Positions 4,251 to 33,164 of a stretch of DNA of 34,289 bases are shown here, piece after piece. Origin of the DNA: a virus (taxonomy: Duplodnaviria; Caudoviricetes). Location of the stretch: positions 1 to 34,289 of the IMG/VR virus record IMGVR_UViG_3300046778_000122; one strand, given 5' to 3'. Made by a program: the position numbers and the translations under genes. Positions within the stretch are counted from its first letter, which is position 1. The number at the start of each line of letters is the position of its first letter. Below the pieces are notes generated by a model. That model was not told the origin of the DNA, did not search any database, and saw nothing but the letters and a program-made list of their open reading frames with translations.

Positions 4251-4416
4251 ACTTTTCTGACTTGGGAATTAAATTCGAGTACTCATTTTTTATCTTTTCC
4301 GCTATTGCATCACGGCAAAACTTACCAACATCCACGTTATAAGATTTCATTTTTTGCAGTGTTTTATGTTGAATTTCTGAAATACGTATAACCTTTGTTT
4401 TTGTGTATAATTTCAT
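4234..4416 (-). CDS. Small ribbon-helix-helix-like DNA-binding protein
   Basis: 60 aa basic protein; TKVIRIS strand followed by two helices (KFCRDAIAEKI); last gene of the left arm. Confidence 0.5.
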   Translation of the reverse strand: MKLYTKTKVIRISEIQHKTLQKMKSYNVDVGKFCRDAIAEKIKNEYSNLIPKSEKFKCPF

Positions 4417-4431
4417 AATTGTAATACATTT

Positions 4432-4457
4432 GTAGCTGTTAGCAAGTAGTTATGCTC
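4432..4457 (+). other. Terminal hairpin-less recombination core (attI-like candidate)
   Basis: GTTAGCaagtaGTTATGCTC; GTTATGCTC complements GAGCATAAC at 4887-4895; no stem upstream. Confidence 0.45.
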
Positions 4458-4860
4458 CATTGCTACACTTGTGCCAAAATCGAGACGGTAGATGGATATT
4501 TAAAACATTAACAGCCTCTTTAAATAACGGTGCTACTTCTTTTGGTTTCAATCCTGCCAATCCACAACCTATTTCAGTTACAAGGAAAATCAAATTTTCA
4601 TTAGCCTTTGCAAACTCAATAAACTCATCAACAAAAGGCTTAATTTCTTCAATGGTTAATGTTCTTCTAATACTTGCATCTTTCGTCGGTATTCCATAAG
4701 TTCTACCTTGTAAGCCTTTTGCTTGTCCCCATTTTGCACCCCAACCAAGTGCAGATTTAGCAGCACCTTTTCCGTGCCTACCTGATAAGTTTGAGCCAAA
4801 CACAAAAATTTGATTTTCTGCAAGGCTGTTAATGTTTTCTGGTGTTGTTCTTTCAATCAT
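4450..4860 (-). CDS. Cassette gene: A1S_2505-like phage protein (macrodomain-like)
   Basis: IFVFGSNLSGRHGKGAA, TYGIPTK, FLVTEIGCGLAG motifs; TAA stop in the site core. Confidence 0.7.
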   Translation of the reverse strand: MIERTTPENINSLAENQIFVFGSNLSGRHGKGAAKSALGWGAKWGQAKGLQGRTYGIPTKDASIRRTLTIEEIKPFVDEFIEFAKANENLIFLVTEIGCGLAGLKPKEVAPLFKEAVNVLNIHLPSRFWHKCSNGA

Positions 4861-4888
4861 AATTTATCGTTTTAAAACCGCAACGAGA

Positions 4889-5020
4889 GCATAACAGCGT
4901 GTATATGCAAGTGGCGACTATGTGGTTTATTCAACATTTGTTCTTTTATCAAACATTCTGCATAATTGAAAGGTTAGCATTTCTAATCGCCACCTGACAT
5001 ATACACGCAAAACGTTATGC
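4889..5020. repeat. attC-like hairpin site S1
   Basis: GCATAAC a GCGTGTATATG CAAGTGGCGA ... TCGCCACCTG A CATATACACGC aaaac GTTATGC. Confidence 0.85.
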
Positions 5021-5359
5021 GTTATTGTAACGCGACTTGAACAACTTATACGTTTCATTAAAACTTCCTCCTGTTTTATCCATTTCTGCTGATAGTTTTT
5101 CGGATAATTCTAAATCTATTTCACAAACTTGAAAGAAGTCTAAAACGCAACACTCACGTTCTATATTTCTATCAAAATTTGGAATATCTTCTTCAGTTTC
5201 TTCATCAGTATCATAATACTGTGAACAACTTGCTTCTTTTGCGTAAACAGCACCATAATCGCTATCTCCAACTTCTTCGTGTCGATAAAATTCGCAATTA
5301 GAACAACAACGCATAACAGTCGTTTGGCTCAATGGCGGTATTGTTTTGTTTTTGTCCAT
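5015..5359 (-). CDS. Cassette gene: Cys-rich acidic hypothetical protein
   Basis: Likely start MDKNK at 5359 inside the S2 loop; CCSNC motif; stop in the S1 core. Confidence 0.65.
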   Translation of the reverse strand: MDKNKTIPPLSQTTVMRCCSNCEFYRHEEVGDSDYGAVYAKEASCSQYYDTDEETEEDIPNFDRNIERECCVLDFFQVCEIDLELSEKLSAEMDKTGGSFNETYKLFKSRYNNA

Positions 5360-5447
5360 AATGGTTTTTAATTTAATTATTAGTCTATTTTTGTTAGGCT
5401 TAGGTCTTGAATCGTCCGCCACTAAGCCAAGCGACAGAATGTTATGC
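5311..5447. repeat. attC-like hairpin site S2
   Basis: GCATAAC a GTCGTTTGGCT CAATGGCGG ... CCGCCACTA AGCCAAGCGAC agaat GTTATGC. Confidence 0.85.
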
Positions 5448-5837
5448 GTCAGCTTGCTCGAAATCGTGAATAGAAATAGCTAAACCTTTTTCAATTAATC
5501 CAAAAACATCAAAATGATTTTCAAACAAATAGTCAAGTTCGTTTAATCTTGTATAATTTTCGTTTTTTCGCTTAACCATCAACCCATCTGAATTGTCAAA
5601 ATCTATGTAATAATTCTCTCTAAATTTTGAGTGATGTTTACTGTTTATTTCAGAAAGTGGGTAAAGTATTGGTTTGCAGTTTTCAATTTGCCAAAACATA
5701 TTGTGCTGAAAAGAAACAGAATTTTCAGAAAGTTTATGTATTCTGCCAATTTCTATCTTATTATTAAGCATTCCTTTGAATTGGCATTTTAAACCGTAAG
5801 GAAAATAAGGAGCTAAATGTTTTAATTCTAATTTCAT
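5442..5837 (-). CDS. Cassette gene: hypothetical phage protein
   Basis: MKLELKHLAPYFPYGLK...HFDVFGLIEKGLAI; stop in the S2 core. Confidence 0.7.
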   Translation of the reverse strand: MKLELKHLAPYFPYGLKCQFKGMLNNKIEIGRIHKLSENSVSFQHNMFWQIENCKPILYPLSEINSKHHSKFRENYYIDFDNSDGLMVKRKNENYTRLNELDYLFENHFDVFGLIEKGLAISIHDFEQADA

Positions 5838-5884
5838 AATTATTGATTTAATTGATTAATATTGTTGTGGAAATAAAGCCGAAC

Positions 5885-6017
5885 GCATAACACACGCTAC
5901 AAGCAATTGGGGTTTTAGGCTCAATTTAAAGATGGTTTTGTATCAGGGAAACTTGTGTTTATCCGAAGATTTACGCTTCCTTAATCCCCAACTACTTGTA
6001 GCGCGGGAACGTTATAG
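5885..6017. repeat. attC-like hairpin site S3
   Basis: GCATAAC aca CGCTACAAG CAATTGGGG ... CCCCAACTA CTTGTAGCG cgggaac GTTATAG. Confidence 0.85.
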
Positions 6018-6023
6018 GCAAGC

Positions 6024-6057
6024 AAAAAGCCAATCATTACGGATAAAGATTGGCTTT
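6024..6057 (-). terminator. Intrinsic terminator inside cassette 4
   Basis: AAAGCCAATC (6026-6035) / GATTGGCTTT (6048-6057), T-tract on the - strand, just after the HTH gene. Confidence 0.55.
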
Positions 6058-6080
6058 GAAATTTTGAAAATTAGATGTGT

Positions 6081-6434
6081 TTAATTTTTGGGCAACTTAT
6101 CAACTCTACGACCGAGTTGTTCCATTGCTTTTTCCATTGCTTTTTCCATTGCTTTTTCCATTGCTTTTTCCATTGCTTTTTCCATTGCTAAATTCAAATC
6201 GGTTTTATCTTCTTTGTCTTCAAAGAAAAAATTAACCCCAATTGCTTTTGATATTTTTAAAAAAGTTGGTAAAGTTGGAGGAAATTTACAACTGAAAAAA
6301 CGAGAAGTATGAGCAGGAGCAATCCCACTTAATTCTGAAACTTTTAAATTTGATAGTTTTTTTTGTTGTCTGATTTCATCGAGAAGTAAAACGAGCAACA
6401 TCCATTGCTCGTTTTGGTTTGTGTTTTGTGACAT
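6081..6434 (-). CDS. XRE-family HTH regulator with AMEK repeats
   Basis: IRQQKKLSNLKVSELSGIAPAHTSRFFSCKFPPTLPTFLKISKAIG fits the Cro/C1 HTH pattern. Confidence 0.8.
   Translation of the reverse strand: MSQNTNQNEQWMLLVLLLDEIRQQKKLSNLKVSELSGIAPAHTSRFFSCKFPPTLPTFLKISKAIGVNFFFEDKEDKTDLNLAMEKAMEKAMEKAMEKAMEKAMEQLGRRVDKLPKN
6120..6189. repeat. 12-bp tandem repeat (TTCCATTGCTTT) x5.8
   Basis: Directly visible; encodes (AMEK)5-AMEQ. Confidence 0.95.
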
Positions 6435-6438
6435 ATTT

Positions 6439-6879
6439 TTATTTTATTTCAGCATCAATTAATCCAAGTTCGTAATATTGAGGGGAAATTCCACCAACGA
6501 AATAACACATTTTAACTCCGTCAATAATTTTAGAAAGATTTGATTTTTTACGACCATCAAAAGTAATTTCAATTGTTACTTTTTCAATTAAAGCTTCTTT
6601 TTCTGCTTTGATAGTTTTTGAAATTTCTAACATTTCTTTATCCAAATAAGTAGTGTCAATTCCTTCAAACATTCTTTGTCTTGCTCTTGCTCTTTCGTTT
6701 TTTCTTGCTTGACCTGATTTTGTTTGGTTGTTACAAAAATCTGAGTAAGATTCTCTTACTAATAAATAATTTTTCAATTCTCTATTTTCAGTTCTTTCTA
6801 AGATTTCAAAGTTTGTAACTTCTACTTTTTCATTTCCTTTGTTGATTTTTACTGTAGTTTTCATTTTAATTTTTGCCAT
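6439..6879 (-). CDS. Cassette gene: basic hypothetical protein
   Basis: 146 aa ORF, 4-nt gap to the HTH gene, own promoter upstream. Confidence 0.65.
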   Translation of the reverse strand: MAKIKMKTTVKINKGNEKVEVTNFEILERTENRELKNYLLVRESYSDFCNNQTKSGQARKNERARARQRMFEGIDTTYLDKEMLEISKTIKAEKEALIEKVTIEITFDGRKKSNLSKIIDGVKMCYFVGGISPQYYELGLIDAEIK

Positions 6880-6944
6880 TTGTTATGAAGTTGCTGATCT
6901 CCTTTTTAAAGTTTGCCGTGTAAATCACTTCCTTAACTCTTGTA

Positions 6945-6989
6945 CAAATATACAACTGTTATTTGGATAAATTACCATAAATGGTAATT
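6945..6989 (-). promoter_or_regulatory. Bacteroidota -7 promoter plus palindromic operator
   Basis: TATATTTG on - (6945-6952); perfect palindrome AATTACCAT-AA-ATGGTAATT (6970-6989). Confidence 0.65.
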
Positions 6990-7093
6990 ATTTTTAATTT
7001 ATTTTCACTTTTCCTTATTTTAAAAGGGTTTACAAGTGATAATAATTTTATCTAATTTCCAAAATTTCAAAGAACTTGGTGCAAATTGCCTGC

Positions 7094-7183
7094 CTATAAC
7101 CTATGCTACTGGCAATTTGCAGAACTCCCTACTATTATTCACGTTTTGTGGTGGCAAACTGCCAGTAGCATCCGCCGTTATAA
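7094..7183. repeat. attC-like hairpin site S4 (short)
   Basis: CTATAAC ct ATGCTACTGG CAATTTGC ... GCAAACTG CCAGTAGCAT ccgcc GTTATAA. Confidence 0.85.
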
Positions 7184-7546
7184 CTCATTTTGCGGAAGAG
7201 AACGTGCTAATTCTGCTTTTAATCTTGAATTTTCAGAAAGTAACTCTGCAATTCTTTTAGTAGGTTCTGCTCCAATTCCTGCACCCGCCCAAATTGATAC
7301 TATTTGCTTTTCTCCTTCGTCAGGATGAATGTAAGCAATATGTGTCATCATATGCCTATTGTCCGTTGCGGCTTTCATTATCATTACTAATAAATCAGAA
7401 CACATTTTAAATGTACTTTCTTTAAGGGTGTCAGGTTTTTTGAATGCCCAAATGAATAATTTAAAAGCATTTGATAACCGATAATAAAAACGAGGCATAA
7501 CATCGTGTATAAGAGATTGCTTATTTGGTTTTGTATCTGAATTCAT
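7178..7546 (-). CDS. Cassette gene: hypothetical protein
   Basis: Starts in the S5 loop; stop in the S4 core. Confidence 0.65.
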   Translation of the reverse strand: MNSDTKPNKQSLIHDVMPRFYYRLSNAFKLFIWAFKKPDTLKESTFKMCSDLLVMIMKAATDNRHMMTHIAYIHPDEGEKQIVSIWAGAGIGAEPTKRIAELLSENSRLKAELARSLPQNEL

Positions 7547-7628
7547 AATTTTTGAATTTAATGATTAGTAATTTTTGGAAGTATCGGTTTCAATCGGCGC
7601 AACCTCCCATACACGCCGTCCGTTATAC
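7495..7628. repeat. attC-like hairpin site S5
   Basis: GCATAAC at CGTGTAT AAGAGATTGC ... GCAACCTCCC ATACACG ccgtcc GTTATAC. Confidence 0.8.
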
Positions 7629-7634
7629 CTAATG

Positions 7635-7862
7635 CTACGAACCGAACTCAAAGAAATCGACATCTCCTTTTTGTTTTGTAATTTTTTTGTATTCCAAAAT
7701 GTTGACATTGTTTTTATTGATTTTGTCAGCAACAAGCGTAATGCTTTTAACTGTATCGTGATCAAGCGTTCCACGTCTAACATCCATCAATACACCAGTA
7801 AGCATTTCATTTAATTGCTTTGCGTTTTTTACTTCAAAATTCAAATCTCTTTTAGCTTCCAT
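7635..7862 (-). CDS. Small helical hypothetical protein
   Basis: 75 aa ORF; same position after a CxxC protein as 9479-9736. Confidence 0.6.
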   Translation of the reverse strand: MEAKRDLNFEVKNAKQLNEMLTGVLMDVRRGTLDHDTVKSITLVADKINKNNVNILEYKKITKQKGDVDFFEFGS

Positions 7863-7872
7863 AATTTTTGTT

Positions 7873-8519
7873 TTAAATTGTTTTTAAATTGTTTAATTCT
7901 CTTCGTAATTGTATTGTTAATCTTTTGAAATCTATCATTTCTTTTGGTGCTTCTTTTACTTTTGCCTTTAAGGTCAAAGCAATATACGCATCGGTTAAAT
8001 TGACAATTCCACTTTTTCTAAGTTTTTCTTTTGGCACAAAATCAACATCACCATAATCATACTTTCGTTTTATTTGACTTATAATTTTTCTGCAATCAAT
8101 TCTATATTGCTCATAGTTTGTAAAAACATAACCATCTTTTATTTTTTTCTTATAACGCCTTGAACTCCTTTTGGAAGATGTGAAATTTCTTTTACGAATG
8201 TTCTAGTTTCTGAATATTGTTTTTTCCAATTTTCTCTATAATCCGAAACATCACAATTCATTTCTTTGCATCTTTTTTTAATTCTATTCGCCTCTCCTTT
8301 TTTATTATTACAACTTTTGCATATTGCCCTGAATGAATGATAAATTGCTAATCCACTTTTATTTTGTTGTTTAATTACTTTTGCAAAAAAATAATCTTCT
8401 GTTTTTGGAAACTCCAAATTACAACACGTACATTTTTTAAGAACAAAAGCACTAGGTATAACACTCGTTTGGCAAGATTGGGTTTCGGGCTTAATTTGAT
8501 GTTGGTCTTGTACTTTCAT
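7873..8519 (-). pseudogene. Zn-finger (CxxC...CxxC) protein split by a frameshift at an A7 tract
   Basis: 8139-8519 stops right after AGA AAA AAA; the -1 frame stays open to 7873 and encodes LTDAYIALTLK...PKEMIDFKR, resembling the C-terminus of 9723-10115. Confidence 0.7.
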
Positions 8520-8586
8520 TTTTTAGTCTTAAATTTAATTATTCGGGTTTATTTTTCCCAACCTCGCCAAGTTGCAAACGTTACAG
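8456..8586. repeat. attC-like hairpin site S6
   Basis: GTATAAC actcgt TTGGCAAGATTGGG ... CCCAACCTCGCCAA gttgcaaac GTTACAG. Confidence 0.8.
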
Positions 8587-9474
8587 GAGATTTTGGGAAG
8601 CCACTAACTCGTGTTCTAAAAATCTTTTAGAAGGCATTTTTATTCTTTGGTTTTTTTCTATTTCCATTATTTCAGGTAAACAGTGTTTTTTTATAAACGC
8701 ATTTATTCTGTTTGGAGTAGTATCAAATTTTTCAGCTAATTTCACAGTCGAGAAATGGATTTTAAAATCTTCTAAAAGGGCATTTTTATCAATAACAAGC
8801 TCCATCGCTTGCATAGATAAGCTTATTGTATTTTTCCTGTTTTGGTTCTGTTTTTTATAATTTGATTTTTCCATATTATTATCATCGATATATTTTGAAA
8901 CTGTAAGCCGATGAACTTTTAATATTTTCCCGATGGCGCTTACTGAAAGTCCTAATTTTATATAATTTTTTATTCTCGATTCAAAAGGTTTTAATTTTGA
9001 TACTTCAGGATTGCTTTTTGAGCCTCTAGGTCTGCCTAAAATAACTCCTTCGGCTTTCTTTCTTGCTAATGCCTCTTTTGTCCTTTTAGAAATCATATCT
9101 CTTTCTATTTCCGCAGCTAAAGCAAACGCAAAAGCCAAAACTTTTGACTGAATATTGTCGCCTAATTCATATCCATCTTTTACCGTGTAGACTTTGCATT
9201 CCATCTTCATACAGTGCTCTAAAATTCGCATTACCATAAACAACGAACGTCCTAATCTTGATAATTCAGAAGAGATTATAGTATCTCCTTTTTTTATTTT
9301 TTTTAGAAGCTTTCCAAGCTTTCTTTCTTCCGGCTCTTTTGTTCCTGAAACGCCGTCGTCGATTATCCAACTTTCAATTTCAAAACCTAAATCTTTAGCT
9401 TTTTGAATAACTCCGTGTTTTTGATTTTCAGTATCCTGAACATCTGTGGAAACTCTTAAATATCCGTATATCAT
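8581..9474 (-). CDS. Small serine recombinase (resolvase/invertase family) with extended HTH C-terminus
   Basis: MIYGYLRVST, DDGVSG, SELSRLGRS, AEIERDMISKRTKEAL...GVILGRP; no large-integrase zinc ribbon. Confidence 0.92.
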   Translation of the reverse strand: MIYGYLRVSTDVQDTENQKHGVIQKAKDLGFEIESWIIDDGVSGTKEPEERKLGKLLKKIKKGDTIISSELSRLGRSLFMVMRILEHCMKMECKVYTVKDGYELGDNIQSKVLAFAFALAAEIERDMISKRTKEALARKKAEGVILGRPRGSKSNPEVSKLKPFESRIKNYIKLGLSVSAIGKILKVHRLTVSKYIDDNNMEKSNYKKQNQNRKNTISLSMQAMELVIDKNALLEDFKIHFSTVKLAEKFDTTPNRINAFIKKHCLPEIMEIEKNQRIKMPSKRFLEHELVASQNLL

Positions 9475-9478
9475 AATG

Positions 9479-9736
9479 TTAGTTCTTTAATTGTTTTGGC
9501 TTAACGGTATCGATTTCAGTAGGTAAATCTTTTGCGTCTATTTCTCCTTTGGCAATTAATTTTAAAGCATCCATAGAAATTTTATTGATTTCAATAATAT
9601 TTACAGCTATTTCTCCCATAGCTTTAGCTCGCTTCATTTCTATTCCAAATTGTTCAGGAGAAAGTTCTTCATCATTCAGCCTTTCCATCTGTTCGAAAAG
9701 ATGATTGTTTAAATCTGATAGTTTATTTTTTGCCAT
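9479..9736 (-). CDS. Conserved small phage protein (KNKLSDLNNHLFEQMERL type)
   Basis: Recognisable N-terminal motif; overlaps the upstream gene. Confidence 0.7.
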   Translation of the reverse strand: MAKNKLSDLNNHLFEQMERLNDEELSPEQFGIEMKRAKAMGEIAVNIIEINKISMDALKLIAKGEIDAKDLPTEIDTVKPKQLKN

Positions 9737-10115
9737 TTTTAAGCTTTTTAATTATCCTACTTGTTAATATTTTGGTTCTTTTAGCTTCAATAATTTCAGG
9801 AGTTGAACGCATATTTTTATTAGATTCTCCTTTTAAAGTTTGTTTTAATTTATTCAAAACATATCTATCTGATAGTCTATCACGTTGTTCTTTATCGTTG
9901 TTTTTTTTCCAATCTTTTCGTTCTGTATTTTGGTAATTCAGAATTTTTACTTTGTTTTTTTTATAATGTTCTTTTGCTCGTTGATTTGCATTTTTTTGAG
10001 CACAAGGGATACAATAATTACCTAATCTGTATTTTTGTCTTGATTTAGAAAAATATCTATGGTAATCTTCGATTGGTTTTTCTATTTTACAAATAGGACA
10101 AACTTTACTTTCCAT
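9723..10115 (-). CDS. Basic Zn-finger protein
   Basis: CPIC...CIPC pairs, Lys/Arg rich. Confidence 0.65.
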   Translation of the reverse strand: MESKVCPICKIEKPIEDYHRYFSKSRQKYRLGNYCIPCAQKNANQRAKEHYKKNKVKILNYQNTERKDWKKNNDKEQRDRLSDRYVLNKLKQTLKGESNKNMRSTPEIIEAKRTKILTSRIIKKLKNGKK

Positions 10116-10169
10116 TACTTTAAAATATTAATTGGTAAAATACCTCGTCCTTTGTTCCTTTAAAATTAC

Positions 10170-10394
10170 TCATAATGCTTTCAATTTATTAATTACTAAA
10201 TAATTTCTATTGTCTTCATTCGGTTGCTCTAAAATCTCGATACATTCGGTAATACCTTTTTTGTACTTTTCAATCTTAGATAAAAGCTCTTGATTCCATT
10301 CTTGTTGTTCTTCAAGTTCGGTATGTGGCTCGCGTTCTATTTCCTTGATGTTTGCGGGATGTTTCGGATTGTGTTCGTCGTGAGTGTCTAACAT
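10170..10394 (-). CDS. Hypothetical protein
   Basis: Tightly packed in the leftward operon. Confidence 0.55.
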   Translation of the reverse strand: MLDTHDEHNPKHPANIKEIEREPHTELEEQQEWNQELLSKIEKYKKGITECIEILEQPNEDNRNYLVINKLKAL

Positions 10395-10399
10395 AATTT

Positions 10400-10606
10400 C
10401 TATTGATTAAGTGCAACAATTCTAAAAGCATTTACCATTCGTTCGGTATCTTTAATATAAACATTTCCCATTTTCTTCATCCATTCGTAGAATCTTAGAA
10501 CGTCGGATTCATCTTTTGGCGGATTAATTACGTTTTTCGATAGCGTTACAGCTAAGTTGTGTTCAAAAATTAATTGTTTCATTGCGTGTGATGCGATTGG
10601 TTTCAT
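10400..10606 (-). CDS. Hypothetical protein
   Basis: ATGA overlap with the upstream gene. Confidence 0.55.
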   Translation of the reverse strand: MKPIASHAMKQLIFEHNLAVTLSKNVINPPKDESDVLRFYEWMKKMGNVYIKDTERMVNAFRIVALNQ

Positions 10607-10785
10607 AAAAATTTTTCTTTTAATTTTGTTAATACTAAATCTTGGTGTTCAGCAGGTATTGACCAGAACGAACCCATCCAGTGGTTATAGATTGTTCTTG
10701 CTCCCGTTCCAGTAAGTTCTGATATTTCAGAACAAAATGCTTTTTTAGCTTTTAGCTTTCTGTACAATGTTTTGATTTCTTCCAT
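10603..10785 (-). CDS. Cro-like small HTH protein
   Basis: Likely start MEEIK; EISELTGTGARTIYNHW is HTH-like; first gene after the leftward promoter. Confidence 0.5.
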   Translation of the reverse strand: MEEIKTLYRKLKAKKAFCSEISELTGTGARTIYNHWMGSFWSIPAEHQDLVLTKLKEKFL

Positions 10786-10811
10786 AGTTATTTTAGTTTT
10801 AAATTGTTTAG

Positions 10812-10918
10812 CAAATGTATGAATAATATTTGGATAAATAACCACCACAAGCGTAATTTAGAATCAGAATAAATTAGAGTGGTGGTGGTTATTTATATTG
10901 AAATAATTTGTATATTTG
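10812..10918. promoter_or_regulatory. Divergent promoter pair with 15-bp inverted repeat
   Basis: TACATTTG on - (10812-10819), TATATTTG on + (10911-10918); ATAAATAACCACCAC (10834-10848) / GTGGTGGTTATTTAT (10882-10896). Confidence 0.7.
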
Positions 10919-10951
10919 TTAAAACTTTAAAATTTAACCTAAAACCTAAAA

Positions 10952-10979
10952 CGGTAATAGCGCAAAATTGCTGTTATAG
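10952..10979. repeat. Orphan attC-like half-site (GTTA side)
   Basis: cggtaaTagcgcaaaattgct GTTATAG; invariant T at -15 from GTTA. Confidence 0.5.
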
Positions 10980-11005
10980 TTTGTGGTTTTCAAAACTGAA
11001 TATTT

Positions 11006-11404
11006 ATGCCTTACAAAAAGCAAAGACAAAATGTTTACGATAAATACAAAGGTCATTGTGCTTATTGCGGAAAGCAAATTGCAATAAAAGATATGCAAAT
11101 TGACCACATTATCCCACAATTAAATTACGAATGGATTTTCAAGAATAAAATATTGAAAATGATTCCTGAATTTCTAAATCATTTAACTGAAAAAGATGTA
11201 CATAATATTGACAACCTAAACCCAGCCTGTAGAGTTTGTAATAAATGGAAATCAGCCTATCATTTGGAATTATTTAGAAGCGAAATTCAAGAACAAACTA
11301 AAAGACTTCAATTAAGAAGTTCGAATTATAGAATGGCTAAATTATACGGATTAGTTTCTGAAAGTGATGTGAAAGTAAAATTTCATTTTGAAAACCAAAC
11401 GTAA
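11006..11404 (+). CDS. HNH endonuclease
   Basis: CAYCG, DHIIP, NLNPACRVCNKWK. Confidence 0.88.
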   Translation: MPYKKQRQNVYDKYKGHCAYCGKQIAIKDMQIDHIIPQLNYEWIFKNKILKMIPEFLNHLTEKDVHNIDNLNPACRVCNKWKSAYHLELFRSEIQEQTKRLQLRSSNYRMAKLYGLVSESDVKVKFHFENQT

Positions 11405-11410
11405 TATTGC

Positions 11411-11443
11411 TTGTAACATCCTGTGGCTTTGTCGTCGTTGCCG
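11411..11443. repeat. Orphan attC-like half-site (TAAC side)
   Basis: TTGTAAC atcctgtggctttgtcgtcgttgccg directly after the HNH stop; no partner arm downstream. Confidence 0.5.
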
Positions 11444-11476
11444 AAAAATAAGACCTAATTTTTAAATTTAAAAACA

Positions 11477-11719
11477 ATGAATACAACTGCAACTTCAGAA
11501 CAATTAAGAAAAGCAAAAGAAGATTTTTTAAAAAGAACTGAACCATTTATGAATGAATTAGCAAAATTAGCTCAATTAAAAAAACCTATTTTACAATATG
11601 ATTTGACAACTAATTTTTATTCTTTTAAATTTGAAAAAGACACTAAAGGAGAGGAAAATTTAAAAAAGATAATAAGCGATATTAGAGATGATATTTCGGA
11701 AAATTTAGATATGTATTAA
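11477..11719 (+). CDS. Hypothetical protein
   Basis: 80 aa ORF between the half-site and S7. Confidence 0.6.
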   Translation: MNTTATSEQLRKAKEDFLKRTEPFMNELAKLAQLKKPILQYDLTTNFYSFKFEKDTKGEENLKKIISDIRDDISENLDMY

Positions 11720-11736
11720 GTTGCTCAATAGCTGAC

Positions 11737-11866
11737 GCATAACGGGAAAGATTGTCGTAGTTGGGATAAAAGAAAAACTAATAATTAAATTTAAAACAAA
11801 TAATTCAGATGAAAAACAATGTAAAAATTAAAGACAATACCCAATCACTACAATCGTGTGTTAGTG
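11737..11866. repeat. attC-like hairpin site S7 (inverted relative to the left arm)
   Basis: GCATAAC gggaaa GATTGTCGTAGTTGGG ... CCCAATCACTACAATC gtgt GTTAGTG. Confidence 0.8.
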
Positions 11867-12327
11867 TTTCGGTTACGGATTTAAGAATAGGTAATTGGAT
11901 TATGGATAGAGGAAATAAAGCGTGGCAAATTGATTGCTGGGAACATAGTACAAAAGTAGCATCTAAAGAACCGATTATTGGGATTTGTAATTTTACTAAA
12001 AAACCAATTCACGGACATCCATTAACAGAAGAAGTTAACTTTTTAAAACCAATACCGCTAACAGAAGAGTGGTTATTGAAGTTTGGGTTTAAACAAAAAC
12101 CGATAAATGGGTTTGAGATAAATTATTTTACAGATTGCAAGGAATCAGCAGAGAAAATGGGAATATTAATTAATTTATGCTCTAATAGATGCGCAATACT
12201 TGATACCGATACAGACGAACAAAGTGCTATGACTTCAAAGATAATTTATTATGTTCATCAATTGCAAAACATATACTTCGCTTTGACAGGTTCGGAATTG
12301 CAGATTGGTAATTTAACTGAACACTAA
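11809..12327 (+). CDS. Cassette gene: conserved Bacteroidota phage hypothetical protein
   Basis: DLRIGNW...PIPLTEEWLLKFGF...VHQLQNIYFALTG; starts in the S7 loop, stop in the S8 core. Confidence 0.75.
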   Translation: MKNNVKIKDNTQSLQSCVSVSVTDLRIGNWIMDRGNKAWQIDCWEHSTKVASKEPIIGICNFTKKPIHGHPLTEEVNFLKPIPLTEEWLLKFGFKQKPINGFEINYFTDCKESAEKMGILINLCSNRCAILDTDTDEQSAMTSKIIYYVHQLQNIYFALTGSELQIGNLTEH

Positions 12328-12455
12328 CGATCGGTGCTTTGCGAGGTTTTTCAGCACGAGAAACGAAAGCCTTTCGGAGTAGCAAAAACAAACCAAGTAC
12401 AAAACCAACTTTAAAGTTTGCCTTAAACCCCAATTGCGCCAAACCGCTGTTGTGC
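12322..12455. repeat. Degenerate/hybrid attC-like site S8
   Basis: CACTAAC gatcggtgctttgcg ... caaTtgcgccaaaccgct GTTGTGC; same length class (134 bp), arms pair poorly. Confidence 0.6.
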
Positions 12456-12491
12456 GTTCGGTTTTCTCTTTACAAATTAAAAAATATTATT

Positions 12492-12728
12492 ATGAAATTA
12501 ATTGATAAATTATTACACTGTCCAGACGAAAATGGTTGGACAAATCCAAATATTACTAGGTCTGAAAATTTAGAAAAAATAGCAGAAGATTTCGCTGTTG
12601 AATTTTCAAAATGGTTAAGAAAAAATACTGCTCAAACTAAAGGTGGTTCTTACAAACTTTTTAATGATTTTCAGAAATACAATTTAACCGAATTAGTTCA
12701 AATATTTAAAAACCAAAAAAATATTTAA
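12492..12728 (+). CDS. Hypothetical protein
   Basis: Likely start MKLIDK after an AT-rich leader. Confidence 0.55.
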   Translation: MKLIDKLLHCPDENGWTNPNITRSENLEKIAEDFAVEFSKWLRKNTAQTKGGSYKLFNDFQKYNLTELVQIFKNQKNI

Positions 12729-12730
12729 TT

Positions 12731-12889
12731 ATGAAAATAGAAGACGTTACAAATTTACTCGCAAACAGAATTAACCAACCACATTATGTAAAAGATTGGT
12801 TAGAAAAATTTTACAATCAAGGTTTTCAAGATGCAAAAAAATTAACTTTCGGATTATTACAAATCTTACTGACACAAAACAATTATTAA
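12731..12889 (+). CDS. Small hypothetical protein (52 aa, not in the ORF track)
   Basis: MKIEDVTNLLANRINQPHYVKDWLEKFYNQGFQDAK...; 2 nt after the previous stop. Confidence 0.45.
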   Translation: MKIEDVTNLLANRINQPHYVKDWLEKFYNQGFQDAKKLTFGLLQILLTQNNY

Positions 12890-12901
12890 ATTTAACCTAA
12901 A

Positions 12902-12930
12902 GCCTGAATAGCGGTTAGCGTATGTTACTG
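12902..12930. repeat. Orphan attC-like half-site (GTTA side)
   Basis: GTTACTGGCTGTGTT (12924-12938) complements AACATAGCCAGTAAC (13313-13327) at 14/15. Confidence 0.65.
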
Positions 12931-12954
12931 GCTGTGTTTTTAAAATCAAACATT

Positions 12955-13314
12955 ATGGAATTAAGACAATTGAAAAACCTTTTTGAACAAATGGAATCAG
13001 GAAAAGTATTAGATTACAAATTAAGCGAGCCTTTTTCTTGGAGAGGTATTTATGCTGAATGTGCTTTTGAAATATTAAAAGAAAGTTCTACTAAAAAAGA
13101 AAATTTAGAGCAAATAAAAAAAGCATTGAAAGAAGAATTTGAAGGTTATAAAGGTGGAGATTTTAGATATGATTTAGATACCGAAGTTCATTTTGAAACT
13201 GACTATGGAAGCTATACTGATGGCGGATATAGTAAAAGACTTATTGAAGAAATAAAAAGAGAAAAAGCATACGATTCTTTCGAGGAAGAACTCGTTAATC
13301 TGATATTTCTGTAA
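12955..13314 (+). CDS. Cassette gene: acidic hypothetical protein
   Basis: Likely start MELRQ; PFSWRGIY and FEGYKGGDF motifs. Confidence 0.7.
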   Translation: MELRQLKNLFEQMESGKVLDYKLSEPFSWRGIYAECAFEILKESSTKKENLEQIKKALKEEFEGYKGGDFRYDLDTEVHFETDYGSYTDGGYSKRLIEEIKREKAYDSFEEELVNLIFL

Positions 13315-13320
13315 CATAGC

Positions 13321-13454
13321 CAGTAACGTTATGTAGCCTTGTGCTGGTGGCAAGATTCAAGATCAATGCCAACAAAAACAAAACAATAATTACGACTATC
13401 CGAGTCTTTTCGGACACAAAACCAACTGCCACTAGCTCAAGGCTACTATTATGC
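13321..13454. repeat. attC-like hairpin site S9
   Basis: CAGTAAC gttat GTAGCCTTGTGCTGGTGGCA ... TGCCACTAGCTCAAGGCTAC t ATTATGC (G>A in the core). Confidence 0.8.
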
Positions 13455-13613
13455 CTAGTGCTTTTAAACTACAAATTATGTATTATAAAATTGAAAACAA
13501 AGAATGTGACATTAGTTGAAATTTATCAAAAAAACGAATTTATAACCGTTCCAAATTGCAAAAATTTTGAAGATTTAAAGCAATTATGCAGATTGTTTTT
13601 GTAAATTAGCAGA

Positions 13614-30785: not shown

Positions 30786-31307
30786 ATGTGCGGAACTACG
30801 CTAACAGCATCGAGAAAAAAAACTGGCTTTATTAAGCCAAAAGGGTATAAAGCCATCGGTTTTGCCGTATGGGACAGTGCAAATATAATCCAAAACACTT
30901 CTACTGGGGTAATAGCTTTGCCCGCTGGAATTACGGCCGTTTACCGTTTTGAAGTAAAAAATACTGCCGATAATTTTATTGAAACAGCATCGAAAGACCC
31001 TGTTACAATGACGGGGAACAAAGCAGGAGTTGGAACATTCGCCTTAATGTATTGCGAAAGAATTAAGAATTTAGCTGATGCGCAAGCGTTATTGGACGGT
31101 GTATTCAACGTGTTTTTCGAACATAATGACGGCACAAGTATCACGCTTGCAGGGGCTGCCAATGGCGCAGATATAATTACAATAGTAGAAAGCACGGATG
31201 CGCAAGGCTTCTTGTTTACTCTAAATACTTTTGAACCCGCATTTGCCTACACTTTGGCAGCGGCTGGAGTTACTGCTTATAATGCAATCATTGCAGACGT
31301 AGTATAA
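30786..31307 (+). CDS. Major tail tube protein (putative)
   Basis: MCG start, AGAANGAD, GFLFTLNTFEP pattern; 173 aa. Confidence 0.55.
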   Translation: MCGTTLTASRKKTGFIKPKGYKAIGFAVWDSANIIQNTSTGVIALPAGITAVYRFEVKNTADNFIETASKDPVTMTGNKAGVGTFALMYCERIKNLADAQALLDGVFNVFFEHNDGTSITLAGAANGADIITIVESTDAQGFLFTLNTFEPAFAYTLAAAGVTAYNAIIADVV

Positions 31308-31633
31308 TGAAAGTTTTGAAATTAAATACTCCTTTTGAAATTAGCGTAGTCCCTAGGATTGCGCTTGTTTCATCGGACGAATTAATTTTCACGGCAAGAA
31401 ATGAAGCAACTGGATTGAGTGCCGAATACACATTGTTTTGGTCATTGATTAATGGGCGTTTGAATTTTGAACTTCCAGACACGAACGCTGATTTTTTAGC
31501 AGGAAATAAATACGAAATTTTCATAACTTCCAACGATGTAATAATTTATCGCGGAAAAATGATAATTGTAAAAGAAGACACGAACATTCAAAACTATACA
31601 CCATCGAAACAAACGACACCCAGATTTCTTTAA
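31307..31633 (+). CDS. Small structural protein
   Basis: IIYRGKM motif; TAATG coupling on both sides. Confidence 0.5.
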   Translation: MKVLKLNTPFEISVVPRIALVSSDELIFTARNEATGLSAEYTLFWSLINGRLNFELPDTNADFLAGNKYEIFITSNDVIIYRGKMIIVKEDTNIQNYTPSKQTTPRFL

Positions 31634-32685
31634 TGGCGTTTTCGGCTTATATGCCGACAATAAAAGAAATACAAATAGGCACAAAATACGTACTAAATGG
31701 GTTGAATAACAAAAATTATAAGCTATTTACAGATGCTTATGACGATTCAGTAACCAATTCAGCTTGCATAAATGACATCTCTAACCTGATTAAAGGCGAA
31801 GGATTGACAAATAAATCAGGCGGCAAGTCGCCAACGTCAATCATATCAGATGACGATTGGGGTTTGCTTGTTTTGGACTATAAAAAACAAGGGCAAACAG
31901 CCTTACAAATCATTTGGTACGCTGGAAAACCAATTAAAATATATCATATTCCATTGGAAAACACCGCATTGAATGTTGACGAAACAGGAATGAAAGTAAA
32001 CGGATATTGGTATTGCTACGATTGGAAAAGACAATACAAATACAAGCCAGTTCTTTATCCTAAATTCGATAAAGAAAATCCAGAGAACAAAACGCAAATG
32101 TTAATTATCAAAAGACCGTCAAATGAACCGTTATTCGCAAGGCCTGACTGGTTTCCCGCATTAAGATGGGCGCAAGATGAGGGATTAATGGCACAGCATT
32201 CGTTTAACGATGTTGCAACAGGTTTTTCTGGTCAAAAGGTAATTAACTGGGTTGGTGGTCGTGGATTAACAGCAGACGAAAAAAGAGCAGTTATCGCTGA
32301 AATAAGAGAAAAGTTTTCTGGAATTAATGGACAGAGATTAATTATTTCTGTAAATGATTCTCCTGAGAATTCCGTAGTAGTCGACAACATTGACCCGCCA
32401 AGCGTAAATGCAACCTACGTAAATTATACCGAAGAAGCTGAAAGAAAAATTTTGATAGCTCACTCGTATCCATCTATTTTATTGGCAGGATCTAAAACGG
32501 GATTTTCTTCAAATGCGGATGAAATTGCGGTTGCAACTAAATCGTTTTTTCGTAGGGTAATAAATCCGGCAAGAAAAACTTTATTATCAGGATTGCAAAG
32601 TATATTTGACATAATTGGAGAAGGGATCGTTTTGGACGTGAAAGATTTTGAAAGCGAAGAACTTGACAATAACACAAGCGAATAA
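31633..32685 (+). CDS. Portal protein (putative)
   Basis: DSVTNSACI, KILIAHSYPSILLAG...GFSSNADEI, VINPARKTLL. Confidence 0.75.
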   Translation: MAFSAYMPTIKEIQIGTKYVLNGLNNKNYKLFTDAYDDSVTNSACINDISNLIKGEGLTNKSGGKSPTSIISDDDWGLLVLDYKKQGQTALQIIWYAGKPIKIYHIPLENTALNVDETGMKVNGYWYCYDWKRQYKYKPVLYPKFDKENPENKTQMLIIKRPSNEPLFARPDWFPALRWAQDEGLMAQHSFNDVATGFSGQKVINWVGGRGLTADEKRAVIAEIREKFSGINGQRLIISVNDSPENSVVVDNIDPPSVNATYVNYTEEAERKILIAHSYPSILLAGSKTGFSSNADEIAVATKSFFRRVINPARKTLLSGLQSIFDIIGEGIVLDVKDFESEELDNNTSE

Positions 32686-32687
32686 TT

Positions 32688-33164
32688 ATGAGTACAATTA
32701 AACTAATGATACAGCCAGCGGACGCGATAGCATTGACACAGCTCGATGGAAACATTGACGTTGACAACTTGAAGCCTAGCATTTACGCAGCTCAAACGAC
32801 TCATTTAAAAGCTTTTTTAGGATTGAAATTGTATACGAAAATATATACTGATTTTGATTCAGACGATTTGGCTGGCGAATATTTGATTATTTTCAACGAT
32901 TACATCAAAGATTTTCTTTCTTACTACGCTTCGGCTTTGTTCGTGGATTTTGGAGGCTACAAGGTTTCTGAAAACGGCTTACATAAAGTAGCTGGGGAAA
33001 ATATGACATCACTTTCTGAAACGGAAATAGCTACTTTGTCGTTAAAATACACTAAATTAGTAGCCAACGTAGAGGCGAATTTTAAAGAATATGTTTCAGA
33101 TAAAAACTTGCCAGAATTAAGCTGCAATTCAATTAACATTCAAAGCGACCACCCATGGCTATAA
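32688..33164 (+). CDS. Head-tail adaptor (putative)
   Basis: GNIDVDNLKPSIYAAQTTHLKAFLGLKLY; follows the portal. Confidence 0.55.
   Translation: MSTIKLMIQPADAIALTQLDGNIDVDNLKPSIYAAQTTHLKAFLGLKLYTKIYTDFDSDDLAGEYLIIFNDYIKDFLSYYASALFVDFGGYKVSENGLHKVAGENMTSLSETEIATLSLKYTKLVANVEANFKEYVSDKNLPELSCNSINIQSDHPWL

Follow-up and report, generated by a model that had tools for sequence, protein, structure and literature searches.

How could a phage that encodes no tyrosine recombinase come to carry its accessory genes in rows that resemble integron cassettes? The question is raised by IMG/VR virus record IMGVR_UViG_3300046778_000122, analysed here over its whole length of 34,289 nucleotides (the window), which is a complete phage genome with terminal repeats that encodes a terminase, portal, primase, helicase, and endolysin. 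Among named records, it is matched most closely by phages of Flavobacterium, Cellulophaga, Polaribacter, and Tenacibaculum. Between 4.2 and 13.5 kb, small genes are arranged in two runs that are read in divergent directions, here called the left and right arms and punctuated by hairpins similar to the attC sites of integrons. Our analysis suggests, with a probability of roughly 0.8, that a fixed attI-like docking site is followed in the left arm by six cassettes, that the right arm is a decaying row of the same sites, and that the cassettes are moved by integron-type recombination at G|TT, in trans, by an Xer-like recombinase of the host or of other phages (Table 1).

Nine hairpins of 90–137 nt are present in the two arms, in agreement with a first-pass annotation of the sequence down to their start positions. 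On the strand defined here as top, each reads AAC, arm, loop, arm, GTT, the spacer measuring one base next to AAC and five next to GTT; the TAAC/GTTA layout proposed earlier holds generally and fails at one end of site 9. With the geometry fixed in this way, seven of the nine sites form at least 13 of 20 Watson-Crick pairs (200 local dinucleotide shuffles: mean 0.5, maximum 3), and no site at this threshold occurs in the remaining 25,189 bases of the genome. The worst pairing, 9/20, belongs to the site at 12322, which fits the earlier count of eight well-paired elements. All 16 inner pairs show compensatory changes in an alignment of eight window sites and 16 related ones, so that structure is kept over sequence, as had been proposed. 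Covariation reaches 0.669 versus 0.179 in shuffled alignments (0 of 500 shuffles attain it), a result that leans in favour because arm complementarity had served to select the sites. When whole sites are folded, the z-scores are strong in five of the nine (−3.5 to −5.3), the long A+T loops diluting the signal in the other four. The search model, R1, was trained on eight of the nine sites; its inner stem is right, its core helix of four pairs is one column off, and its E-values are rough, and all pair counts were recomputed in the correct register. Rfam yielded four weak matches in the window, none inside the array region, and the Flavo-1 motif (RF01705), which had been suggested for comparison, matches no site.

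The ends of these elements pair with their neighbours and not with themselves. At seven of the eight testable junctions in the window, the 7-mer that closes with AAC pairs with the GTT end of the preceding site, not with that of its own site, four of these matches using rare 7-mers; the two ends of cassette 4 (GTTATAG/CTATAAC) and of cassette 6 (GTTATAC/GTATAAC) are complementary in this manner. In related phage loci, counted here and for gene polarity after six near-duplicate and five repeat loci had been dropped, neighbour complementarity is found in 101 of 125 cases and complementarity within the own site in 6 of 184 (shuffled mean 6.8, maximum 17), and chromosomal arrays show the former in 123 of 125. 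Pairing of the cargo ends continues as far as position 15, interrupted by a forced mismatch at position 11, in a set picked by exact 7-mer match, in which positions 1–7 pair by construction. This cassette set, which also serves for the leaders discussed below, was reduced to unique cargo, with related phages remaining in it. Because the outer stem forms only once the two ends of a cassette are joined, the pairing points to a circular intermediate.

One of the three half-sites reported earlier, that at 4449, forms no hairpin and is the docking site itself; the other two are truncated sites of the right arm. The docking site adjoins the start of a 60-aa gene carried by 76 IMG/VR loci and 12 phage records. 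GTT stands at the same distance in 68 of the 76 related loci, with sequence conserved up to GTTA and diverging right after it, and the first 25-mers beyond the docking site amount to 61 distinct sequences in 65 loci. The first downstream site complements the docking site in 49 of 54 loci, and the left arm of the docking site reads G-Y-T-W-N6-A-N4, the motif of the hairpin arms described below. Judging from faint similarities, the 60-aa product is probably a ribbon-helix-helix (RHH) protein: the predicted model contains two helices (confidence score, pLDDT, 77.6), nearly all Foldseek rows are RHH proteins with Arc/CopG types on top (best E-value 0.46, non-significant), and the sequence matches RelB weakly and no PDB entry.

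Gain, loss, and reordering of cassettes are evident from relatives, where the borders fall at GTT, as the first-pass annotation had anticipated for the cores, and the site follows its cargo. Locus L123 differs from L120 by an extra cassette inserted GTT-exactly at the docking site, L148 carries an extra mid-array block relative to L149, and four cassettes that are 100% identical between L224 and L226 stand in a different order in the two. The cultured phages 6H, 23T, FPSV-F7, FPSV-D35, and 2A have a common docking site followed by four different first cassettes and hold identical cassettes at other places. We consider site-specific recombination at G|TT a highly probable means of cassette movement. 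The earlier proposal that cassettes are gained, lost, and reordered is thus supported in relatives and not in this genome; mobility in this very phage rests on them, because no window cassette was found at high identity elsewhere.

The same comparisons bear on whether the array was instead built in a recombinase-bearing ancestor and has only been inherited since, the current changes being ordinary phage–phage recombination. This would suit a window with no recombinase, a damaged right arm, and no exact copy of its cassettes elsewhere, and two of 25 RHH-platform phages do carry a recombinase of the family introduced below elsewhere in the genome. Yet the other 23 have no family-level match, and first cassettes in such loci are nonetheless distinct in 61 of 65 cases, from GTT onward, and near-identical cultured phages without recombinase differ by whole cassettes. 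We regard a frozen relic as unlikely.

Aligned in register behind the spacer, the two 15-bp arms of a site share the sequence G-Y-T-W-N6-A-N4, read outward from the centre. The A at position 11, present in all nine window sites, faces a C on the top strand, which gives a T·G pair on the bottom strand; A·C occurs at this position in 137/141 and 147/148 inner arms and in 154/192 and 88/105 outer arms. No conserved extrahelical or bulged base was found, and beyond pair 12 the arms keep their register in 138 of 140 chromosomal sites and 92 of 132 phage sites. The attC-like assignment made earlier is apt for the cores and the end complementarity, and these are not classical attC sites. The bottom strand is the better folded in 170 of 196 sites from phages and 107 of 152 from chromosomes, and its T·G wobble may mark the recombining strand.

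In phages, the better-folding strand is the coding strand, and some loops hold start regions, which would also be in keeping with hairpins that act in RNA (processing, termination, or translation control), with swaps produced by homologous recombination between similar hairpins; some borders do lie inside similar arms. The same strand is non-coding in chromosomes, however, and still folds better there, and Rfam gives no match. An RNA role also leaves unexplained the end pairing between a site and its neighbour, which exists only in a DNA circle, the unpaired docking site, and the linkage to a recombinase. We find this account very improbable.

Which enzyme would act on such sites? The window encodes no tyrosine recombinase, and the absence of an IntI-type enzyme, remarked on earlier, is confirmed there. 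In phage locus L056, a 277-aa recombinase stands where the RHH-like gene would be; it has at least 675 homologues. Querying genome contigs with one recombinase found nothing, and an alignment query returned 15 loci. Across 94 recombinase loci, all 118 site matches lie upstream on the opposite strand. Sites occur upstream of 39 of 49 family recombinases with enough flank versus 0 of 27 other tyrosine recombinases, a count that leaves out the 18 of the 94 loci that have <900 nt upstream. The RHH-like gene and the recombinase, as platform genes, never share a locus. The genus to which a Flavobacterium-labelled assembly belongs was surveyed in 41 genomes, of which 35 carry sites and 25 a family recombinase (24 host-type, one phage-type); all 25 recombinase-bearing genomes have sites and all six site-less genomes lack the recombinase, the site counts being lower bounds because 82 candidates were scored per genome. 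Host recombinases mostly stand directly before the array, in the same direction.

The linked recombinases have 18 residues where VchIntIA has 61, and are thus ~43 residues shorter, without the IntI insertion; against TIGR02249, they score 157 bits in two stretches (cut-off 265). In a tree without an IntI row, host-type recombinases group with phage-type ones, separate from XerD-like rows, and the phage-type rows are not firmly a single clade (54/33). The earlier suggestion of a host-supplied or non-canonical enzyme fits in both its senses, as this is an Xer-like recombinase without the IntI insertion that sits beside arrays of hosts and of other phages. That the family supplies the enzyme in trans is, in our judgement, probable. 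The Mpi-type serine invertase encoded within the left array, or host XerC/XerD, for which a XerD-level match exists in 41 of 41 genomes, might act in its place, and the arm length and spacing of the sites are dif-like. None of the fetched loci contains a homologue of the invertase, and the sites track the separate recombinase family, on its own branch apart from XerD-like rows, so that we give either enzyme very little credence. Least credible is placement between genes by a transposase, in the manner of MITEs (miniature inverted-repeat transposable elements) or repetitive extragenic palindromic elements: similar sites do adjoin unrelated genes, and MITE-like sequences are reported as common to Bacteroidota and their phages (PMC11602168), but in identical cassettes gene and site travel together, bordered by GTT, each array has a single polarity, and the inverted repeat is formed by the cargo ends, not the site ends.

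Several observations weigh against mobile cassettes served by this enzyme family. Three of the seven window junction matches use the commonest 7-mer, and mismatches affect 24 of 125 neighbour pairs in phage loci and five of 54 first cassettes at the docking site, some of which reflect miscalled overlaps or sites that were missed. In the right arm, no docking site was found beyond site 9 and three sites are damaged. No whole window cassette occurs at high identity in another locus. Ten of the 49 family recombinases lack an upstream site, and ten of the 16 recombinase-less genomes still carry sites. The assembled contigs show no junction that circularises or bypasses a cassette, although contigs cannot exclude such junctions. 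Of five pairs with diverged cargo, four differ in the attached site, an outcome not expected from strict integron chemistry; one of these pairs has 97.8% cargo identity, a differing site, and a border at TAACA. Crossovers at the AAC end may fairly explain such site exchange between cargos, given that in IntI assays the other strand recombines more readily once extrahelical bases are lost (PMC5027507). In run X1, probably the source sample, contig breaks at 4449–4478 and 4981–5017, with loose ends at 5017/5018, were not counted, as other phages with similar sites may explain them.

Gene polarity sets the phage arrays apart from chromosomal ones. The top strand, + in the left arm and − in the right one, runs counter to the genes of either arm, and site orientation flips with transcription between the arms as the first-pass annotation stated. 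Cassette genes of phages are antisense, pointing towards the docking site, in 119 of 122 cases; those of chromosomes are sense in 103 of 125. Six open reading frames (ORFs) do stop within a TAAC, as noticed earlier, but this core is the GTT end read backwards, not the AAC end as in ordinary cassettes. Likewise, the supposition that the elements are intergenic is correct for five; in the other four, an ORF starts inside the loop (5359, 7546, 8519, 11809). The earlier reading missed these loop start codons, together with the docking site and the antisense polarity.

Among long-site phage cassettes, a loop ATG is in frame with open cargo in 61 of 133, versus 23.2 in shuffled sets (maximum 37), and such a leader is carried by 79 of 133 sites in phages and by 30 of 152 in chromosomes. 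A occupies positions −13/−12 of the loop ATG at frequencies of 0.80/0.77 versus a background of 0.49; in F. johnsoniae, A at these positions favours initiation and marks well-translated genes (PMC6847099). Identical leaders precede unrelated genes in different phages: that of the cassette 2 gene does so in phage 6H and L101, and the L103 counterpart of site 7 (11737..11866) bears the same leader on another gene. Loop start codons are, we think, rather likely to be used for translation. No Pc-type promoter expressing cassette genes was found at the docking-site end, where a promoter-like box at 4401–4432 would read the cassette genes antisense and is not conserved. The two divergent boxes near 10.8 kb, matched to a promoter consensus, are the likely source of both array transcripts.

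From these elements, the following sequence of events can be proposed. The phage coding strand would fold into a hairpin, on which the recombinase would bind two head-to-head 15-bp arms (G-Y-T-W-N6-A-N4), with the T·G wobble at arm position 11, formed on that fold only, replacing extrahelical bases as strand marker. A cassette would exit as a circle, its ends completing the 15-bp outer stem, and re-enter mostly at the docking site. Early transcription from the 10.8-kb promoter would run through the array starting with the oldest cassette and heading for the RHH-like gene, a direction suggested by the antisense lie of the phage genes. The site before each gene would often provide an A-rich start region and a short leader, and rarer AAC-end crossovers would exchange sites, and hence leaders, between genes.

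Integrons are defined by an IntI integrase with an integron-specific insertion, and their recombination is held to require that insertion. It is also held to require extrahelical bases (PMC5027507). With classical integrons (class 1, Vibrio VchIntIA), the system shares AAC...GTT hairpins, a crossover at G|TT, a fixed docking site, cassette-end complementarity, a tyrosine recombinase heading arrays, and one strand stabilised by G·T pairs (PMC5027507). It differs from them in the shorter recombinase at the VchIntIA insertion, the lack of a conserved extrahelical base, the asymmetric 1/5 spacer, 15-bp arms and fixed wobble of its sites, and, in phages, the antisense genes that often start in a loop and, here, the RHH-like gene in the place of the integrase. 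It works like an integron and falls outside the class by its lack of IntI, of Pc, and of extrahelical bases. The linked enzymes align to XerA and XerD structures without a large gap, but score below the XerC, XerD, and XerA cut-offs, branch apart from XerD-like rows, and adjoin cassette arrays. Flavo-1 RNA is likewise a repeated structured element of Flavobacteria; unlike our sites, which do not match it, one copy of it lies upstream of a host recombinase, apart from the sites (L296 7639–7714, between a release-factor gene and the recombinase).

Qi 2023 (PMC9892861) presents integrase-less site clusters in phages, including two sites of Polaribacter phage P12002L that it treats as IntI substrates; P12002L_attC1 was the only site that IntI1 failed to recombine. 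This site (L311:30005-30059) is a short member of the hairpin family, read in reverse, and R1 and our scanner detect further family sites in P12002L, whose attC2 in that study ends at an apparent docking junction. The sections consulted describe no family, docking site, enzyme, or polarity. For the host phylum, IntegronFinder 2 detects hardly any integrons in Bacteroidetes, with one complete integron in Bacteroidetes proper (PMC9024848), and a review lists Bacteroidota among integron-bearing phyla (PMC8618304). The literature searched, outside which most subscription journals lie, gave no account of the system, and the P12002L two-site cluster (Qi 2023, PMC9892861, as far as its available sections go) is all we found in print.

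A wider view, which we put forward tentatively and at somewhat less than even odds, is that Flavobacteria and their phages possess a second, I2-independent integron system. An enzyme-free platform, RHH gene plus docking site, would hijack a host recombinase; two symmetric T·G wobbles would choose the strand; AAC-end exchange would reshuffle start regions and N-terminal leaders besides genes; and cassettes would pass both ways between phage and host. Exchange with hosts is suggested by the 90% identity of the site at 5885 to a chromosomal site and by the gene at 5442, whose homologue is a chromosomal antisense cassette. If true, a widespread system without the IntI insertion or extrahelical bases would allow a test of whether folded-strand recombination arose from Xer-like enzymes, and would provide a site-specific mechanism for part of phage mosaicism. 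It would also explain odd N-terminal leaders on many hypothetical proteins of Bacteroidota phages, where start calls may be site-derived. Cultured phages with the same platform exist (the 6H group, P12002S), which makes testing feasible.

Table 1 Features of the two cassette arms, in window coordinates.
Feature	Position	Strand	Remarks
RHH-like gene, 60 aa	4234..4416	-	Fixed array end; occupies the place of the recombinase in other phages
attI-like docking site	4417..4455	+	Putative crossover between G4449 and T4450
Cassette 1 gene	4450..4860	-	A1S_2505 family phage non-structural protein; stop within docking-site core
attC-like site 1	4889..5020	+	AAC end complementary to GTTATGC at 4449
Cassette 2 gene	5015..5359	-	Starts at ATG within loop of site 2
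attC-like site 2	5311..5447	+	91% identical to phage 6H site adjoining other genes
Cassette 3 gene	5442..5837	-	31%-identical homologue is an antisense cassette in chromosomal array L302
attC-like site 3	5885..6017	+	Host-type; 90% identity over 130 nt with chromosomal array site (L303)
Cassette 4 cargo	6081..6879	-	Helix-turn-helix (HTH) gene 6081-6434 and gene 6439-6879; promoter-like box at 6952
attC-like site 4	7094..7183	+	Short; left out of model training; E 8.7e-5
Cassette 5 gene	7178..7546	-	Starts within loop of site 5
attC-like site 5	7495..7628	+	Sole 7-mer neighbour mismatch (GTTATAA vs GCATAAC)
Cassette 6 cargo	7635..8519	-	ORFs 7635-7862, 7873-8037, 8139-8519; the last starts inside site 6
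attC-like site 6	8456..8586	+	ORF 8139-8519 (-) starts in loop
Mpi-family serine invertase gene	8581..9474	-	Last unit of left array; own site no longer present
Divergent promoter-like boxes	10812..10918	10819 on -, 10911 on +	Flank inverted repeat 10836-10894
Truncated site	11411..11521	-	ORF 11477-11719 (+) starts in its former loop
attC-like site 7	11737..11866	-	ORF 11809-12327 (+) starts in loop; 89% identical to L103 site
attC-like site 8	12322..12455	-	Weak pairing
Truncated site	about 12821..12930	-	AAC end complementary to GTT end of site 9
attC-like site 9	13321..13454	-	AAT replaces AAC at one end

The cargo of the window shows some features of its own. The cassette 1 protein has no PDB match. 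Within the HTH gene of cassette 4, a 12-nt unit is repeated six times in tandem at 6117–6190 (MEKA repeats), and contigs in two other runs are four units shorter. The same cassette contains, at 6952–6985, a copy of the motif found next to the divergent promoters at 10829–10894, which consists of TTTGGATAAAT followed by an inverted repeat, and because of this copy the cassette may bring its own operator and promoter. The serine invertase has a long C-terminal extension, and its gene end falls in a site core. Just past site 9, the − strand at 13460–13490 reads AATACAT...GTAGTT, which loosely resembles the docking sites of recombinase-bearing phages and may be a remnant or chance.

Further observations concern the related loci. 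In phage 6H (L087), the first cassette is a duplicate of an older one, and at about 5350–6200 host-like sequence, a piece of cytochrome c oxidase subunit I, breaks up an array site. A site loop in L056 (15016–15149) resembles a reversed tRNA fragment. P12002L (L311) carries family sites of ~200 nt at 31114–31317, 32488–32698, 39512–39713, and 39827–40053, whose loops seem to contain small annotated genes, and has DNA methyltransferase genes among its cargo. Chromosomal arrays include about ten cassettes with phage-like antisense genes, and in two arrays of one genome (L296–L298, G028) a short cassette without a clear ORF repeats several times. Relatives of the host recombinase (48–59% identity) occur in PLSDB on plasmids of Chryseobacterium, Klebsiella, Aeromonas, and Acinetobacter.

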